Positions 2,815 through 10,705 of a stretch of 34,348 nt of DNA are shown here, one piece after another (within the stretch, counting starts at the first letter, position 1; every line of letters starts with the position of its first letter). A program made the position numbers and the translations under genes. Source of the DNA: Kiritimatiellia bacterium (GTDB lineage: Bacteria > Verrucomicrobiota > Kiritimatiellia > RFP12 > JAZUKQ01); NCBI GenBank assembly GCA_045643325.1, contig JAZUKQ010000044.1, forward strand, positions 1-34,348. The letters are read 5' to 3'. The notes beneath the pieces were generated by a model. It saw only the letters and a program-made list of their open reading frames with translations. It had not been told where the DNA came from and made no database searches.

Positions 2815-4623
2815 TTATTTTTCCTCGTCGGTGTTGGTCCGGAGGACGGCGATGAAGGCCTCCTGCGGGACATTGACCTGTCCACAGAGCTTCATCCGCT
2901 TCTTGCCTTCCTTCTGCTTGTTGAGAAGCTTCATCTTGCGTGTGACGTCGCCTCCATAGAGTTTCGCCGTGACGTCCTTCCGGAACGGGCGGATGTCCTC
3001 GCGGGCGATGATGTTCGCCCCGAGCGCCGCCTGAATCGGAATTTTGAACATGTGCGGAGGAATGACCTCTTTCAGCGCGGCGCACATCTGGCGGCCGCGG
3101 GCGACGGCCTTGTCCTTGTGGACCATCGAGGAAAACGCGTCGACGGGCTCTCCGTTGAGCAGGATATCCATGCGGACAATGTCGCTCCGCTGATAACCGC
3201 AATACTCGTAGTCCATGGAGGCGTAGCCGTGGGAGACCGCCTTCAGCGTGTCATGGAAATCGATGAGAATCTCGTTGAGAGGCAGCGTGCAGGTGAGGAT
3301 GACGCGCGTGGCGTCAAGACTGTCGGTCTTGTCGACCGTGCCGCGGTGCTCCATCACGACGCGCATGATGTCGCCGATGACAGAGGAAGGCGTGATAATC
3401 GTCGCCTTGATGAGAGGCTCCTCGATGAAATCGGTCTGCGTCGGGTCGGGCATCCGGATCGGATTGTCGATCTCCTCGGTCTTTCCGTTGGAAAGCGTGA
3501 CTCGGTAGACGACGGCGGGATGCGTCGAGATGATGTCCACGCCGAACTCGCGGCGGAGGCGCTCCTCGACGACCTCCATGTGCAGAAGTCCGAGAAATCC
3601 GCACCGGAATCCGAAGCCGAGCGCTACGGAACTCTCCGGATGGAATGTGAAGGCGGCGTCGTTGAGACGAAGCTTGTCGAGACTCTGGCGGACCTTCTCA
3701 TATTCGTCGGTACTGACGGGATAGACGCCGCTGAAGACCATCGGATGGATGTCCTTGAAACCGGCGAGAGGCTCTTCCGCGGGAGCGCCTCGGCTCGTCA
3801 CGGTGTCGCCGATGCGAATTTCTCGGGGATCTTTGACCGTGCCGATGATGTAGCCGACCTGACCGACGCCGAGTTCGTCGACGACGGTCATCTGCGGGGA
3901 AAAGATTCCGACCTCTTTGAGCTGCGTCTCAATACCGGTCCCCATGAATTGGACGTTGTCTCCGGCCCGGAGCGAACCGTCCACCACACGGACGTAGGTG
4001 ATGACGCCGCGGTAGGCGTCGTAGACGGAGTCGAAAACGAGCGCGCGGACGCCTTTTCCGGCGCTTTTCGGGGGCGGGACCTGCGCGACGATGCGCTCCA
4101 TGAGCTCCGGAACGCCGACGCCCGTCTTCGCGCTCACATGGATGGCGTCGTCCATCGGGATGGCGAGCGCCTCCTCGATCTGGTGCGAGGTGCCCTCGAC
4201 ATCGGCGCTCGGAAGATCGACTTTGTTCAGAACAGGAATGATTTCGAGCAGATGCTCCTGGGCGAGGTAGGTGTTGGCGACGGTCTGCGCCTGAACGCCC
4301 TGGGCGGCGTCGACGAGAAGGACGGCGCCCTCGCAGGCGGCCATGCTCCGGGAGACCTCATAGGTGAAATCGACGTGCCCCGGGGTGTCGATGAGATTGA
4401 ACTGGTACTCTTCGCCGTTTTGAGCGACATATTTCATCGTCACAGGGTGCGACTTGATGGTGATGCCGCGCTCCCGCTCGAGGTCCATGGCGTCGAGCAT
4501 CTGGTCACGGAACGTCCGTTCGTCGACCGACTGCGTAAGTTGGAGGATACGGTCGGCGAGAGTCGACTTTCCATGATCGATATGGGCGAAAATGCAGAAG
4601 TTCCGGATATGGTCTGGATTCAT
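2815..4623 (-). CDS. lepA: Elongation factor 4 (LepA)
   Basis: IRNFCIFAHIDHGKSTLADR, ERERGITIK, NLIDTPGHVDF, GFRCGFLGLLH and RKDVTAKLYGGDVTRKMKLL. Start moved to MNPDHIRN (4623). Confidence 0.98.
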   Translation of the reverse strand: MNPDHIRNFCIFAHIDHGKSTLADRILQLTQSVDERTFRDQMLDAMDLERERGITIKSHPVTMKYVAQNGEEYQFNLIDTPGHVDFTYEVSRSMAACEGAVLLVDAAQGVQAQTVANTYLAQEHLLEIIPVLNKVDLPSADVEGTSHQIEEALAIPMDDAIHVSAKTGVGVPELMERIVAQVPPPKSAGKGVRALVFDSVYDAYRGVITYVRVVDGSLRAGDNVQFMGTGIETQLKEVGIFSPQMTVVDELGVGQVGYIIGTVKDPREIRIGDTVTSRGAPAEEPLAGFKDIHPMVFSGVYPVSTDEYEKVRQSLDKLRLNDAAFTFHPESSVALGFGFRCGFLGLLHMEVVEERLRREFGVDIISTHPAVVYRVTLSNGKTEEIDNPIRMPDPTQTDFIEEPLIKATIITPSSVIGDIMRVVMEHRGTVDKTDSLDATRVILTCTLPLNEILIDFHDTLKAVSHGYASMDYEYCGYQRSDIVRMDILLNGEPVDAFSSMVHKDKAVARGRQMCAALKEVIPPHMFKIPIQAALGANIIAREDIRPFRKDVTAKLYGGDVTRKMKLLNKQKEGKKRMKLCGQVNVPQEAFIAVLRTNTDEEK

Positions 4624-4630
4624 AGGCGGA

Positions 4631-4639
4631 AGTATACCA
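4631..4639 (-). promoter_or_regulatory. Extended -10 promoter (TGgTATACT) for lepA, probably leaderless
   Basis: The minus strand reads TGGTATACT-TCCGCCT-ATG, so the -10 hexamer ends 7 nt before the start codon. No SD sequence. Confidence 0.6.
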
Positions 4640-4764
4640 TAGACCATGCGCGCGCGGAAGCGGAGGAGCGACCGGGATTTCACACTCAAAAAAGGGGGTA
4701 TCCGGCGTATTTTTTCTGATGGACGGGCGTGTATGATTCTTTAACGAAATTCGAAAAAAGGGGG

Positions 4765-4793
4765 TTGCGCTCACATCCGGGGTATGGTATCCT
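4765..4793 (+). promoter_or_regulatory. Sigma70-type promoter of tRNA-Asp
   Basis: TTGCGC-17 bp-TATCCT with an extended TG and an upstream A-tract, ending 16 nt before the tRNA. Confidence 0.65.
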
Positions 4794-4809
4794 ATCGCAC
4801 ATCACCCGC

Positions 4810-4886
4810 GGGGGTGTAGCTCAATTGGTTAGAGCACCGGACTGTCGATCCGGCGGTTGCGAGTTCGATCCTCGTCGCTCCCGCCA
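4810..4886 (+). tRNA. tRNA-Asp (GTC)
   Basis: Cloverleaf with acceptor GGGGGTG/CGCTCCC, D-arm TAGCTCAATTGGTTAGAGC, anticodon arm CCGGA-CTGTCGA-TCCGG, T-loop GTTCGATC and encoded CCA. Confidence 0.97.
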
Positions 4887-4893
4887 CTCTTCT

Positions 4894-4930
4894 AAAGGGC
4901 GGCTTCTCTCGGAGAAGCCCCCCTTTTTCT
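4894..4930 (+). terminator. Rho-independent terminator after tRNA-Asp
   Basis: Stem GGCTTCTC-TCG-GAGAAGCC followed by a T-rich tract. Confidence 0.7.
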
Positions 4931-4945
4931 GTTTTCTCGTCTCCC

Positions 4946-5740
4946 ATGATTTCCCAATTTCTCAAAGTTCTGATTCTGGCCGTCATTCAAGGTATCGCGG
5001 AATTCCTTCCCATCAGCAGTTCGGGGCATCTGGTTGTCGGAAAAACGCTCTTCCAACTCAATTCGCCTGGAACGCTCTTAGAAATCGCCCTGCACGCAGG
5101 TACATTGCTCTCCGTCTGCGTCTTCTACGCGAAAGATATCGGAGAATTGGTCTCCGGTCTTTTTAAAGGCGAGAAGTCCGCATGGCGTTACGCCGGCGCG
5201 GTTCTTCTCTCGATGATTCCCTGCGGGCTTGTCTATGTGTTTTTTGGCGACAGGCTGGAGAGCTTTTTCGGAAAGGCCTCCTGGATCGGTCCATTCTGGA
5301 TTCTCACCGGCGTTCTTCTCCTCACCATGCGGAAAAAGTCCGGTGATTTGAGTATCTCCCCGCTCCGAGGACTTCTCATCGGCATCGCGCAGGCCGTCGC
5401 GATGCTGCCCGGAGTCAGCCGTTCCGGAACGACCATCTGGGCCGCGGGCCACCTCCATGTCAAATCCGGCGAGGCGGCGCGCTTTTCGTTTCTTATGAGC
5501 GTTCCCGTCCTCGCGGGAGCGGTCCTTATGATGGTCAAAGACGTCGTTTTCGGCGATCCGGACCCCTCGGGAGAACGTATTCCTCTCTGGATACTCGCTT
5601 CCGGCGCGCTGATCGCCGCTGTGGTCGGCTATTTGGCGCTCTCGCTTCTTGTTCGCATGCTTAATCGAGGCCGTTTCTGGGTGTTTGGAATCTACTGTCT
5701 CGTCATCGGCATCGCCGCGACGCTCGCGTTCGCCCTATAG
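4946..5740 (+). CDS. uppP: Undecaprenyl-diphosphate phosphatase
   Basis: IQGIAEFLPISSSGHL and AMLPGVSRSGTTI BacA motifs, 'AARFSFLMSVP', and multiple TM segments. Confidence 0.95.
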   Translation: MISQFLKVLILAVIQGIAEFLPISSSGHLVVGKTLFQLNSPGTLLEIALHAGTLLSVCVFYAKDIGELVSGLFKGEKSAWRYAGAVLLSMIPCGLVYVFFGDRLESFFGKASWIGPFWILTGVLLLTMRKKSGDLSISPLRGLLIGIAQAVAMLPGVSRSGTTIWAAGHLHVKSGEAARFSFLMSVPVLAGAVLMMVKDVVFGDPDPSGERIPLWILASGALIAAVVGYLALSLLVRMLNRGRFWVFGIYCLVIGIAATLAFAL

Positions 5741-5798
5741 CGCGGAATTCGTTGGTCTGGTTTTGAAAACACGGAATCCGGTCTAAACTCTTGGATTT

Positions 5799-7265
5799 AT
5801 GATGAAAAAAACTACTCTTGGCTCCTCTGTGAAAGAACCGACCGTCGGTTTTGTCAGTCTCGGATGCGCGAAAAACCAAGTCGATCTTCAAGTTATGGCG
5901 GGAGAATTGCTCCACGCGGGTCTTCGACTCGCCCCCTCTCCCGAAAAAGCGGACGTTATCCTTGTCAACACGTGCGCGTTCATCGAGAGTGCCAGAGAGG
6001 AGGCCGCGGACCAGATTCTTTGGGCTTGCGAACGAAAGGCGAAGGGCGCCTGTCGGGCAGTTGTCGTTTCCGGATGTCTTCCCCAGCGGTATGCGGACAA
6101 AATGCACGAGGCATTCCCCGATATCGACGCGATTCTCGGGGTTGACGATCTCGACAAACTCCCTGAAATTGTTAAACAAATTATTAATAACGATTGCAAT
6201 AGTAACTATAAAGAGAAACAGTCTTCCAAGACAGAAACAGCCAAAAAAGTAAAAAAAATCGGTGTTTCTTCCTCGTTTTTCACGAACGGGGTATCCTCCG
6301 GGACACCATGCAGAGTGTTCGATCCGAAAGAGCCTGGTCTTATCCTTTCCGGGGGGCCGTTCGCCTATCTGAAAATCGCGGAAGGTTGTTTTCATGCCTG
6401 CGCGTTTTGCGCCATTCCGGGAATCCGGGGAAAATTCAGGTCTCGGTCTATCGACGCGATTCTCGACGAGGCGCGGGGCATTCTCGACGCGGGGATTCAT
6501 GAGATCAACCTTGTCGCGCAGGATGTCACAGGATTTGGAAAAGATATTCCGAAGGGACCGCGTCTTCCGGATCTCCTGAAAGAATTGGATAAACTTGAGG
6601 GTGATTTCAAAATTCGGCTGCTTTACGGCTATCCTGCGACGGTGACAGACGAGCTGCTGGAATGGATGGTCACAAGTCCGCACGCCTGCCGCTATCTGGA
6701 TATCCCGATCCAACACTCCGATCCGGACATTCTTCGGGCCATGCGCCGCGCGGAAACGGTTTCGGCGGTTGAAGGATTTGTAAAAAAAGCCCGCGAGAAA
6801 GTCCCGGGGATCACACTTCGGACAACCGTGCTCGTGGGTTTCCCAGGAGAAACAGAGGAGCATTTCAAACATCTCCTCAACTACATCAAGGACTCGGAAT
6901 TCGACCATTTGGGGGTCTTTCCTTTCTACCCAGAAGAAGGAACCGCCGCTTTCGAAATGGGTGACGACCCCGACGCGGAGACCGGAAACGTCCGCGCCGA
7001 CAAGGTGATGGCCGTTCAAAAGAAAATTTCGACCAATCGGTTGAAAGCCTTGGTCGGCACACGCGGCGAGGTGATTTTGGAGGCTCCTTCGGAAGAAAAC
7101 GGTCCGGATGTATGGATCGGCCGCTCGACCTCCCAGGCGCCGGACGGCATTGATGGTTCGACCTATATTTTCGGTGTCCCGGAAAACGCCGAACCAGGTT
7201 CTTGGATTCCTGTCACGTTCACCGGTGTGGACGAGTACGACCTCTTGGCGGAATACCTTGGATAG
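5799..7265 (+). CDS. rimO: Ribosomal protein S12 methylthiotransferase RimO
   Basis: SLGCAKNQVD, VNTCAFIESAREE, SGCLPQRY, radical SAM motif YLKIAEGCFHACAFCAIP, YLDIPIQH, VGFPGETEE and a C-terminal TRAM domain (APDGIDG). Confidence 0.93.
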   Translation: MMKKTTLGSSVKEPTVGFVSLGCAKNQVDLQVMAGELLHAGLRLAPSPEKADVILVNTCAFIESAREEAADQILWACERKAKGACRAVVVSGCLPQRYADKMHEAFPDIDAILGVDDLDKLPEIVKQIINNDCNSNYKEKQSSKTETAKKVKKIGVSSSFFTNGVSSGTPCRVFDPKEPGLILSGGPFAYLKIAEGCFHACAFCAIPGIRGKFRSRSIDAILDEARGILDAGIHEINLVAQDVTGFGKDIPKGPRLPDLLKELDKLEGDFKIRLLYGYPATVTDELLEWMVTSPHACRYLDIPIQHSDPDILRAMRRAETVSAVEGFVKKAREKVPGITLRTTVLVGFPGETEEHFKHLLNYIKDSEFDHLGVFPFYPEEGTAAFEMGDDPDAETGNVRADKVMAVQKKISTNRLKALVGTRGEVILEAPSEENGPDVWIGRSTSQAPDGIDGSTYIFGVPENAEPGSWIPVTFTGVDEYDLLAEYLG

Positions 7266-7274
7266 TCATAAAAA

Positions 7275-9287
7275 ATGTCAGATACGATTTTTGATGTCTT
7301 GGTCGTCGGTGGCGGACATGCCGGATCGGAGGCCTCGCTTTCCGCGGCGAGAATGGGATGCAAGACTCTTCTGGTCACTCTCCGTAAAGACAAAATCGCG
7401 TCCATGCCATGCAATCCGTCTGTAGGCGGCATCGCAAAATCGCATCTTGTGACGGAAATCGACGCGCTTGGCGGCGAAATGGGTAAAAACGCGGACTTTT
7501 CCGCGCTCCAATACAGGCTGCTGAACACTCGGCGCGGTCCCGCCGTCCAGTCGACCAGACTGCAATGCGATAAACCGCGCTACGCGGCCAGGATGCAGGC
7601 CGTTATGGCTTCTACAAAGAATCTCACGGTGCTGGAAGACGAAGTTGTCGCCTTCCGAATGGACGGTAATCGTGTCACTGGCGTTCATACCGAGAAAAAT
7701 GGTGAGATTCTCTCGAAAACAGTTGTTTTGACCGCAGGAACATTCCTGCGCGGAACAATTCATATCGGACATGAGACCGTCAGCGGCGGAGGTAACGGAC
7801 AGCCGGCTGCGAATGCGCTCGCCGACCAACTGCGAAGCGCTGGACTCTCTGTCTCAAGACTGAAAACAGGTACGCCGCCGCGCTTGAATCCGAAAAGCCT
7901 TCATTATGACAGGATGATGAGACAGGACGGCGACATTCCTCCTCCTTTTTTCTCCTGGAAAGCCAAAAAAAGATGGAAGGATACTGTTCAAACGACTGAA
8001 TTGTTCCACGTGGAACAATCTAGGGCTGAAGATAAGGAGGAGAATAGCGCCTCCTTTCAAGAAATGTTCCACGTGGAACATTTGCAAGACATCATCCATC
8101 GAGGACTGTTCCACGTGGAACAATCAAATCAAGAAGAACTCTCGCTGTCTGGTCAACTATCTCTCGATCGGTTATTCCACGCGGATAATCAAATCCCGTG
8201 CTATGTCTCCCATACAACAGAGGTCACTCACAGGATTGTACAAGATCACCTGAAGGACTCCGCGCTCTATGGCGGGGATATTTCGGGGGTCGGCGCCCGA
8301 TATTGTCCTTCGTTTGAGGACAAGGTCGTCAAATTCTCTGACAAAGAGTCGCATCATGTCTTTGTCGAGCCTGAATCCGCCGACCCGGAACTCAATATGT
8401 CCTACCCGAACGGGTTGTCGTGCTCGCTTCCGCGCGAGGTACAGTTGGAGATGGTCCACAGTGTCCCTGGTCTCGAGGACGCCGAGTTTCTCGCCTGGGC
8501 CTACGCCATTGAATACGACTTCTATGATCCCCGGGACCTGTTCTCGACGTTGGAGTCGAGAAAGATGCCTGGCTCTTTTTTCGCGGGACAGGTCAATGGG
8601 ACGACCGGATACGAAGAAGCTGCCGCGCAAGGATTTTTGGCCGGTGTCAATGCCGCCGCGTCCGTGCTTGGAATCGAACCGCTTGTTTTCGACCGCGCGG
8701 AGGCCTATCTCGGAGTTATGGTCGACGACCTCATCACGAAAGGAACCGATGAACCATACCGGATGTTCACTTCCCGGGCGGAACGTCGACTTCTTCTTCG
8801 TCAGGACAACGCACGATACCGCCTCTTCGACGCGTCCCGGCGCATCGGGATCTCCAATCCGGAATTTCTCGCGGAAACCGAATCCTTTGCTACGGCAATC
8901 CGGAAGGAGACGGACCGACTTTTCAACGAAAAAACGCAAGGACAGTCTCTTGCGACCTTGCTCTGCAAGACCGGTATCGAATATCCGGACCTTCCCGGCG
9001 CGCGGACAGATCTTCCGGAAGAAGTCGTCTACGAGGCCGTCCTCAACGCGCGCTATCATGGATATCTCGAGCGGGAGGAGCATCTGGCGGAAAAGATGCG
9101 GCTTGCTGAAAAAATCAGAATTCCATCCGATTTGGACTACCAATCGATTTCCGCGCTGCGTTTCGAATCTCGTGAGAAATTGACGCGCGTTCGCCCGGAG
9201 AATCTCGGACAGGCCGGACGCATCCCCGGCGTGAATCCGGCGGATATCGCCATCCTTTCCGTTGTCATTCAACGAAGAAAGAGATAA
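7275..9287 (+). CDS. mnmG: tRNA uridine-5-carboxymethylaminomethyl(34) synthesis enzyme MnmG (GidA), with a parS-containing insertion
   Basis: [73 protein letters not shown] and IPGVNPADI. Confidence 0.97.
8002..8017. other. parS site 1
   Basis: TGTTCCACGTGGAACA is a perfect palindrome matching the widespread parS consensus, extendable to 20 bp (8000-8019). Confidence 0.9.
8065..8080. other. parS site 2
   Basis: TGTTCCACGTGGAACA, extendable to a 22-bp palindrome (8062-8083). Confidence 0.9.
8107..8122. other. parS site 3
   Basis: TGTTCCACGTGGAACA. Confidence 0.9.
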
Positions 9288-9289
9288 TA

Positions 9290-9540
9290 CCTTCGTTTAT
9301 ATGTTCATAGGGTGTCAGTAAATAGACAACGGATAGTGGATGATATGAAAATCGCTGTGAACGGTTCTTAGGAATTGTTTATAACAGCTTCCTTGTTCTC
9401 CACGTTCTTGCCGGGTTATTCATGGGTTCAACATTTCATAAGTCCATGAATGAAAGCGTGGATTCTTCATTTTCAACAATATTGACAAGGGTACTGTCTA
9501 CTGTTTCATTTCTCTCTTTAAAATAATATACATCTATCCG
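9290..9540. other. Putative chromosomal replication origin (oriC)
   Basis: An AT-rich gap downstream of mnmG, ~1.2 kb from three parS sites. DnaA-box-like 9-mers are AGTGGATGA 9335, TGTTTATAA 9376, TTCTCCACG 9396, TTATTCATG 9416, TTTTCAACA 9470 and ATATTGACA 9479. These are followed by AGGG, TACTGTCTACTG (trio-like) and TTTAAAATAATATA. Confidence 0.7.
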
Positions 9541-9650
9541 GAACATGCGGGGGAGCCGCGCGGAAAAGAATCGGGAAAGACGATTTTCGGAGAATGTCCT
9601 GTCCATTGATCCTTCGCGGAATGAGCCATCCGCGCGCACCCATAGATGTT

Positions 9651-9679
9651 TTGACTTTCCGGCCGACCGCTCGTATAAT
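9651..9679 (+). promoter_or_regulatory. Near-consensus sigma70 promoter of the AKR operon
   Basis: TTGACT-17 bp-TATAAT, with a GGAG RBS at ~9695 before ATG 9707. Confidence 0.85.
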
Positions 9680-9706
9680 TCCAAAACAATTTGTGGAGAA
9701 AACCTT

Positions 9707-10705
9707 ATGAAACCCTATCTTCCCTCCGACAATCGCTACGGCTCGCTCCCTGTCCGGCGCTGTGGACGCACCGGTGTCCGTCTTCCCGTTCTCTCCCTCG
9801 GTCTCTGGCACAACTTCGGCAGTGTCGATGTCTACGACAACTGCCGCGAGATGGCGCGCACCGCGTTCGATCACGGCATTTTTCATTTCGATCTTGCCAA
9901 CAACTACGGTCCCGAGCCCGGCTCGGCGGAGCGTACGTTCGGACGCATTCTCAAAGACGATCTCGCCCCATACCGCGACGAACTCGTCATCTCCTCCAAG
10001 GCCGGATATTGGATGTGGCCGGGACCCTACGGCGATTTCGGTTCCCGCAAGTACCTGGTCGCGAGCTGCGACCAGAGCCTCAAACGCCTCGGGCTCGACT
10101 ATGTCGATATCTTCTATCACCATCGGCCCGATCCGGACACCGACCTCGAGGAGTCGATGCTCGCGCTCGACTATATCGTCCGCTCCGGACGCGCCATGTA
10201 CGCGGGCATCTCCAACTATAACTGCGAGCAGACGAAAAAGGCCGTCGCCATCCTCCGCGAGTTGAAGACCCCGTTCGTCATCCATCAGCTCCGGTACAAT
10301 CTCTTCGACCGCCGCTTCGAGCAGGACGGACTCCTGAAATGGCTTGCCGACAACGGCGTGGGCGGCATCGCGTTTTCTCCGCTCGATCAAGGCTTCCTTG
10401 CCGGACGCTATCTCGACGGAACGATTCCCGCCGACTCCCGCGCCGGAAAAGGCGGCTTCCTCAAGCCCGCGAATGTCACCGCCGAGAAGGTAGAGAAGAC
10501 CCGCCAGCTCAACGAAATCGCCAAACGCCGCGGCCAGACGCTCGCGCAGATGTCCCTCGCATGGCTTCTTTCCCGTACGGGCATCACCGCCGCGCTCATC
10601 GGCGCGAGCCGTCCCGCGCAGATTCTCGACAGTCTCGGCGCCGTTCAGAATCTTGAGTTCTCCGCGGAGGAGCTCAAAGAAATGGACGCGATCACCTGCG
10701 GCTAG
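9707..10705 (+). CDS. Aldo/keto reductase (YghZ/Gpr, L-glyceraldehyde-3-phosphate reductase-like)
   Basis: LSLGLWHNFG, HFDLANNYGPEPGSAE, SSKAGYWMWPGPYGDFGSRKYL and YVDIFYHHRPDP. Start MKPYLPS follows the RBS. Confidence 0.92.
   Translation: MKPYLPSDNRYGSLPVRRCGRTGVRLPVLSLGLWHNFGSVDVYDNCREMARTAFDHGIFHFDLANNYGPEPGSAERTFGRILKDDLAPYRDELVISSKAGYWMWPGPYGDFGSRKYLVASCDQSLKRLGLDYVDIFYHHRPDPDTDLEESMLALDYIVRSGRAMYAGISNYNCEQTKKAVAILRELKTPFVIHQLRYNLFDRRFEQDGLLKWLADNGVGGIAFSPLDQGFLAGRYLDGTIPADSRAGKGGFLKPANVTAEKVEKTRQLNEIAKRRGQTLAQMSLAWLLSRTGITAALIGASRPAQILDSLGAVQNLEFSAEELKEMDAITCG

Follow-up and report, generated by a model that had tools for sequence, protein, structure and literature searches.

We describe an array of three perfect 16-bp palindromes inside the reading frame of mnmG (gidA), a conserved tRNA-modification gene, in a 34,348-nt stretch of DNA from a Kiritimatiellia bacterium (the window, by which we mean the whole stretch that was analyzed). 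These palindromes very probably constitute the parS centromere of the chromosome, which MnmG seems to tolerate in a disordered loop and which would be kept by selection on the DNA; the binding of ParB to the sites and their role in chromosome segregation are both suggested by sequence comparison. The palindrome TGTTCCACGTGGAACA is present in three exact copies (8002-8017, 8065-8080, and 8107-8122), each of which is an exact match to the consensus 16-bp inverted repeat TGTTNCACGTGNAACA of chromosomal parS. The window holds no further match to the 16-mer at up to 3 mismatches beyond these three sites, and none of 100 dinucleotide shuffles of the window attains three matches. Moreover, the three mnmG sites are the sole parS-like matches with two or fewer mismatches in the 3.34-Mb genome assembly, a metagenome-assembled genome (MAG) of 429 contigs that is 92.7% complete and in which the window is contig C44; five matches are found at 3 mismatches. 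A genome-wide scan of this kind had been proposed in a preliminary description of this DNA, and it returns these three sites and nothing closer than 3 mismatches elsewhere. The same few-copy, clustered pattern is seen in relatives, which carry one to three sites per gene. Mis-binning of contig C44 was considered and rejected, its G+C content (0.61) and tetranucleotide profile lying inside a unimodal bin, beside the contig that carries ParB.

Three palindromes in an expanded loop of MnmG

The features of the window that bear on this reading are the following.

7275..9287, + strand: mnmG (gidA) open reading frame (ORF), 670 aa, uninterrupted (TIGR00136, Pfam GIDA)
7959..8186, + strand: MnmG expansion loop, residues 229-304, host of the putative parS array (alignment to 2zxh and 3cp2; G+C content)
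7998..8159, + strand: predicted disordered stretch, residues 242-295, encoding all three putative parS copies (AlphaFold2 confidence below 50)
8002..8017, no strand: putative parS-1, perfect 16-bp palindrome, read (L)FHVEQ (exact match)
8065..8080, no strand: putative parS-2, perfect 16-bp palindrome, read (M)FHVEH (exact match)
8107..8122, no strand: putative parS-3, perfect 16-bp palindrome, read (L)FHVEQ (exact match)
8173..8188, no strand: possible decayed parS copy, weak, read LFHADN (12/16 match)

Sites 1 to 3 share one phase of the ORF at 7275-9287 (+), in which they are read as LFHVEQ, MFHVEH, and LFHVEQ, and the scan and the phase of the ORF together agree with the preliminary description that three perfect palindromes lie in frame in mnmG. 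Assignment of this ORF to MnmG/GidA follows from its matches to Pfam GIDA (E = 3.7e-141, the match being divided in two stretches) and to NCBIfam TIGR00136 (688.9 bits against a cut-off of 524.85), and the frame is full-length and stop-free. Residues G12, G14, H15, A16, G17, C46, and C344 are invariant in a 34-sequence MnmG alignment, the flavin adenine dinucleotide (FAD)-binding motif GGGHAG is kept, and Cys46 and Cys344 are residues that we take to be catalytic.

Alignment to solved MnmG structures places query residues 228 and 305 opposite residues 250 and 265 of the Aquifex enzyme (2zxh) and residues 250 and 258 of the Escherichia coli enzyme (3cp2). The loop, which is bounded by PPPFFSW and IPCYVSHT, is 76 residues long here compared with 7-14 in solved MnmG, an excess of about 62-69 residues. 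The insertion anticipated in the preliminary description can therefore be delimited against both orthologues and solved structures; that the loop has grown was correct, and the proposed growth of 50-60 aa was slightly low. The segment is also AT-richer, as had been noted, with a G+C content of 0.44 for the insert compared with 0.54 for the mnmG gene and 0.65 for the genome. Furthermore, an AlphaFold2 model of MnmG based on the 34-sequence alignment has a mean predicted local distance difference test (pLDDT) score of 87.3 and a predicted template modeling (pTM) score of 0.88, with values of pLDDT below 50 confined to residues 242-295, the sole long segment of this kind, and residues 496-500. 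Disorder of the loop, for which such a model had been suggested as a check, is thus predicted, and MnmG appears to bear the array as a floppy, disordered loop. The whole bacA-rimO-mnmG stretch (window 4000-10000) has 52-57% G+C compared with 61% for the contig and 65% for the genome; low G+C is not a general property of mnmG, which ranges from 0.36 to 0.70 among the relatives.

Two further claims of the preliminary description fared less well. The degenerate fourth site described there (8173-8188) is not supported as a clear copy; it matches the palindrome at 12 of 16 positions (86% over 14 nt), and the genome contains 127 equally good matches (4 mismatches). That this site is a duplicate of site 3 together with its flank was rejected, because the ungapped identity of the two flanks (15/28) is that of background. 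Arithmetic from the genome-wide count gives an expectation of ~0.01 sites of 12/16 quality per 230 bp, and location in the loop is the sole argument by which the fourth site might, weakly, be considered a decayed parS copy. The spacings of 63 and 42 bp had been equated with six and four helical turns. In relatives, inter-site spacings (n = 40) are not phased at 10.5 bp (Rayleigh p 0.70), and 12 of them are not divisible by 3, so that the spacings in the window are best regarded as coincidental multiples of 21.

Conservation of the loop sites and the level of selection

We examined 40 relatives of the same order, which represent 12 families, and recovered the mnmG locus for 36 of them. In all 36 the loop is open as one frame, and in all 36 palindromes of parS type are present in the same MnmG loop, 31 genomes having the canonical sequence and five the symmetric variant TGTGCCACGTGGCACA. 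For 39 of the 40 relatives, the matches listed place perfect canonical sites on no contig but that of mnmG, either within the loop or shortly before the gene, and one-mismatch matches listed elsewhere in these genomes are single sites that occur at about the frequency of a reversed-pattern control. The loop ranges from 18 to 302 aa between the anchors ..PPPxFSW and xPC[YWF]xTHT. In one relative (L035, G005:C36) the MnmG frame is 991 aa long, with a 302-aa acidic low-complexity loop and two parS sites 543 bp apart; its alignment also breaks at query residues 126-134, with ~240 bp between, suggesting a second insertion.

Beyond the order, a GTDB-wide scan for pairs of perfect sites separated by 13-43 bp, using 8-kb stretches, gave at least 120 loci. 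The pair falls inside mnmG in at least 9 of the 120 loci listed (five titled Verrucomicrobiota, three titled Kiritimatiellota, and one untitled), always in the same loop and in mixed frames; the Verrucomicrobiota-titled loci include Opitutia and Puniceicoccales, and the Kiritimatiellota-titled loci include Pontiella. In at least 29 of the 120, including 19 of 25 Bacteroidota loci, the pair is no more than 300 bp from mnmG, while mnmG is farther away in at least seven and is not found within the 8-kb stretch in at least 75. A stop-free frame of at least 200 aa spans the pair in 27 of these 75, perhaps implying that other genes may host parS, and high G+C could explain some of these cases. The insert peptide of one Kiritimatiellia-titled locus is the same, residue for residue, as in one of the relatives of the same order, which assigns the order of the window to Kiritimatiellia. 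In Rubritalea (Verrucomicrobiales) the loop is 27 aa long and contains a single 15-of-16 site, in addition to two perfect sites 80-120 bp upstream of mnmG. We also sampled 37 genomes of the phylum, each at least 90% complete. Perfect sites occur in 18 genomes from outside the order and are located in the same MnmG loop in 16 of these 18, in many cases with only one site in a loop of 28 aa. Judged from the genomes sampled, the arrangement is the rule in the class; in the phylum it is common but falls short of universal.

The codons with which the sites are written were evaluated in 64 mnmG genes, namely those of the window, the order set, nine of ten titled loci, and the phylum set. The peptide FHVE is encoded by TTCCACGTGGAA in 63 of 63 occurrences, for which gene-wide codon usage predicts 3.5% per occurrence, and only palindrome-compatible codons are used for STWN (32/32), VPRG (15/15), and ATWH (8/8). 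The preliminary description had held that free variation of the codons for FHVEQ among orthologues would speak for selection on the protein; the opposite is seen, with one codon string throughout. Because synonymous codons are absent, the codon evidence indicates that selection is on the DNA word and not on the loop peptide. The companion check, whether relatives retain the DNA 16-mer while the flanking peptide diverges, came out in favor of this view as well, since the exact 16-mer is retained and even the frame changes. These data lend support to the interpretation that the loop serves DNA-level sites inside a conserved tRNA-modification gene, with ParB as the presumed reader.

An alternative is that repeated FHVEQ and FHVEH are a protein-level motif of MnmG, such as a binding or regulatory repeat, of which the palindrome is a by-product. 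This idea has in its favor that the three sites of the window are all in one frame, and that several distant families (f21, f26, and f27) have a 28-aa loop with one site that is always read FHVE, between semi-conserved flanks. The same 16-mer, however, is read in the order set as CSTWN (27 perfect loop sites), FHVE[QH] (26), and VPRGT (6), with eight genes mixing frames, and mixed frames are also seen in loci titled Opitutia, Puniceicoccales, and Kiritimatiellales. Moreover, the flanking peptide is unalignable between families in loops that differ so widely in length, the segment is predicted to be disordered, and not one of the 63 FHVE occurrences employs a synonymous codon. We therefore consider a protein motif to be extremely improbable. 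A practical consequence of selection on the DNA word concerns annotation. FHVEQ, CSTWN, and VPRGT in MnmG would all be palindrome by-products, as would the antisense ORF at 7854-8123 (-), an 89-aa frame that reads MFHVEQ...MFHVEH...LFHVEQ. Antisense ORFs containing FHVE are likely to be spurious gene calls because the palindrome yields the same peptide from either strand.

ParB, the replication origin, and alternative readings

A chromosomal-type ParB is encoded on contig C71 of the same assembly (TIGR00180, 183 bits; best solved relative 7bnk, E = 2.9e-51), with the motifs GERRxRA and ENLQR and the stretch ...SVANAMRLL. The lack of any ParB in the genome had been named in the preliminary description as evidence that would count against centromere sites, and this is not the situation encountered. 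ParB was recovered in 39 of 41 genomes. A second, short ParB_N-like frame (G000:C347:4374-4682, 178 aa, Pfam 31 bits) falls under the TIGR00180 cut-off. A Soj-like ATPase of 267 aa with the sequence KGGVGKTT, a candidate ParA, is encoded on contig C238 (AAA_31, 192 bits; NF041546, 98 bits against a cut-off of 180). The parB and mnmG genes are on separate contigs in all five genomes checked, and no ParA-like gene is present within ~1.2 kb of parB at any of 37 parB loci of relatives. The genome of the window (G000) has its parA-like gene (C238), parB (C71), and putative parS (C44) on three separate contigs, an unusual layout given how common the parAB operon is.

With regard to the replication origin, dnaA and mnmG are on the same contig in all four long-contig relatives, ~2.8, 10, 22, and 26 kb apart. 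In G061, which is assembled as a single 2.95-Mb contig, dnaA lies at position 28 and the mnmG site at 23.4 kb, a separation of ~22 kb, and in G050 the two genes are 84 kb apart. Overall, dnaA and mnmG share a contig in six of nine relatives tested (2.8-84 kb) and are on separate contigs in three. Origin proximity is seen in relatives alone, because the dnaA gene of our genome sits on another contig (C408). In the window, mnmG is preceded by rimO and followed by an aldo-keto reductase gene, and neither dnaA, parAB, nor rsmG is present.

The symmetric variant TGTGCCACGTGGCACA differs from the canonical site at two positions (T4 to G and A13 to C, giving TGTG..CACA in place of TGTT..AACA), which keeps the symmetry. 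It is present in the loops of G014 and G021 (genus g14, family f5) and of G028, G039, and G009 (genus g10, family f9). ParB residue 238 is Asn in 31 of 31 genomes with canonical parS and His in five of five genomes with the variant, and this residue sits in the second helix of the helix-turn-helix (HTH). The second HTH helix of Caulobacter ParB in the co-crystal is described as the recognition helix, which inserts into the major groove (PMC7383237). A ParB tree built without the six columns that separate the two groups follows the family codes, with two label changes, and the number is still two when the columns are included; in addition, uniting the five variant genomes in one clade is rejected by an approximately unbiased (AU) test (p 0.023). 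The five columns other than residue 238 (own residues 147, 151, 160, 200, and 335) separate the groups in both lineages, one being a change from E/A/K/Q/R to D within the ENLQRxDL box and another a change from A/G to C/S immediately ahead of GERR. Two independent and symmetric changes of the site, each with the same recognition-helix change, are what would be predicted if ParB reads these sites, and provide indirect support for this idea. A specificity hypothesis can be framed accordingly, in which Asn and His of the recognition helix would pair with TGTT and TGTG half-sites, respectively. Specificity switching between ParB and Noc (Jalal et al. 2020, PMC7383237) is comparable in that a new DNA specificity goes with changes at a few residues of the recognition helix or its vicinity; it differs in that here positions 4 and 13 of the site change, and that Asn would have been exchanged for His twice in nature.

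If the palindromes are indeed the centromere, ParB dimers would nucleate on the mnmG sites and load as cytidine triphosphate (CTP) clamps, and the resulting partition complex would be acted on by ParA and SMC. The mnmG gene is old, stably close to the origin, and a neighbor of parS in many phyla. Its loop may have arisen as a permissive segment into which the sites would have moved, in the class Kiritimatiellia as well as in several further families belonging to the same GTDB phylum, and where they would stay near dnaA. Location in a conserved, origin-proximal gene may then have shielded the sites from loss while parB came onto another contig. The loop peptide would be whatever the frame gives, with the enzyme tolerating the surface loop.

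Several observations weigh against this reading. In our own genome dnaA and parB are on contigs other than that of mnmG, and the ParA candidate on C238 falls under the NCBIfam cut-offs for ParA and is not beside parB. The co-variation of site and ParB rests on two events and, because five other ParB columns also co-vary, the change of Asn to His is not proven to be causal. Among the same-order relatives, G035 is an exception in having five perfect sites in an 800-bp, repeat-structured, and apparently non-coding stretch between two ORFs, with no mnmG found in its assembly (92% complete), while three MAGs (G001, G007, and G026; 73-77% complete) yielded neither mnmG nor parS. Perfect canonical sites are missing from 16 of the 37 genomes sampled across the phylum. 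Two of these 16 gave no MnmG match and 10 were inspected in all; five inspected genomes of families f22 and f29 have an ordinary loop of 14-16 aa with nothing parS-like in it, and three genomes of the same class have an expanded loop in which only sites with 1-2 mismatches are present. Finally, the only perfect parS of G053 falls away from the usual loop, near residue 534 of MnmG, and the site of G068 is outside mnmG. The exceptions in f22, f29, G035, G053, and G068 mean that embedding in mnmG is not obligatory. As to the structure of these loci, the G035 array (L205, G035:C84, 2650-3600) consists of ~140-bp repeats with microsatellites of the TCGACCAAA and GGGACTAAA types. G053 (L222) and G068 (L223) belong to family f28; the G053 site is read MFHVEH and its usual loop ends in a decayed-looking HFIAQQ, and the G068 site lies at the start of a 684-aa open frame.

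Since many dimeric regulators, as well as repeat elements, characteristically involve short perfect palindromes, the sites might instead be read by another factor, such as a restriction-modification enzyme or a regulator that recognizes CACGTG, or be a mobile repeat resembling repetitive extragenic palindromic (REP) sequences or miniature inverted-repeat transposable elements (MITEs), with no centromere being involved. The absence of any Rfam family at the gathering threshold in the stretch is also in line with this possibility. Nevertheless, we consider it very unlikely, as the 16-mer agrees with the canonical consensus for parS, is found close to dnaA in relatives, and, unlike dispersed repeats, has no copy outside mnmG in the assembly. 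In addition, the symmetric variant co-varies twice with a recognition-helix residue of ParB, and no terminator-like site (a hairpin followed by a T-run) falls on any parS in the terminator scan.

A different possibility accepts the palindromes as true ParB sites and holds that embedding is itself functional, with a ParB clamp or roadblock tuning the transcription of mnmG, or transcription and translation through the sites resetting the loading of ParB, in such a way that segregation is coupled to translation fidelity. The arrangement persists across the class and several other families though intergenic DNA is available, parS is still in mnmG where parB is on another contig and no parA-like gene is beside parB, and Rubritalea retains its 15-of-16 loop site despite two perfect upstream sites. 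G035, G068, f22, and f29, however, do without embedding, and plain entrenchment in a conserved origin-proximal gene accounts for its persistence; a functional role for the embedding therefore seems unlikely. An extended version, in which embedding is selected in its own right because encounters of ParB clamps with RNA polymerase and ribosome traffic couple segregation to the level of MnmG, and in which the change of Asn to His is a natural specificity switch to a new centromere word, we regard as doubtful. A centromere tolerated in the loop and kept by selection on the DNA is the reading that we prefer.

Relation to known centromere systems

Both parS and ParB are textbook elements of chromosome segregation, as is the gidA-par cluster linked to the origin, and overlap of parS with codons is also known. 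Lin and Grossman, in 1998, reportedly placed a parS within the spo0J coding sequence of Bacillus subtilis, as a single site over ordinary codons of a par gene. That case resembles the present one in that the site also encodes protein, whereas here the sites, from one to several and in any frame, occupy an extra and seemingly disordered loop of an unrelated enzyme throughout the class.

A search of the full-text literature, which left supplements and the survey of Livny et al. 2007 outside its scope, found no description of a parS array in an MnmG expansion loop or of its peptides and, in the available parts of papers that name both parS and gidA, parS is not placed in gidA. While parS and ParB themselves are known, the housing of a parS array in an MnmG expansion loop is therefore apparently new, no earlier description having been found. 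The arrangement would offer a clean natural case of one DNA stretch under two constraints, in which the cis site must be letter-perfect and the protein is free in frame and sequence. It also suggests that a tolerant loop, in a gene that is conserved and close to the origin, can hold a centromere in place over very long periods, even when parB is on another contig.

Comparison with chromosomal ParABS systems, as represented by the work on Caulobacter ParB-parS (PMC7383237) and a review (PMC7022226), reveals several shared elements, namely the 16-bp palindrome consensus, the small number of copies, a ParB with HTH and CTP-binding boxes and, going by those relatives in which dnaA and mnmG share a contig, an origin-proximal cluster. 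In contrast to those systems, a single protein-coding gene here contains all the perfect sites within a dedicated expansion loop, parB is on another contig in five of five genomes, and a parA-like gene is beside parB at none of the 37 loci. A parallel in gene order is the gidA(mnmG)-gidB-parA-parB origin cluster, for example that of Pseudomonas aeruginosa (PMC13438810), in which mnmG is likewise associated with both the origin and par functions; parS1-4 of P. aeruginosa lie ~10-20 kb from parAB. In this cluster as described there, and in the mnmG-flanking pairs of other phyla, the sites are outside the gene, whereas among the loci listed the pairs inside it carry, apart from one untitled locus, only the labels Verrucomicrobiota and Kiritimatiellota.

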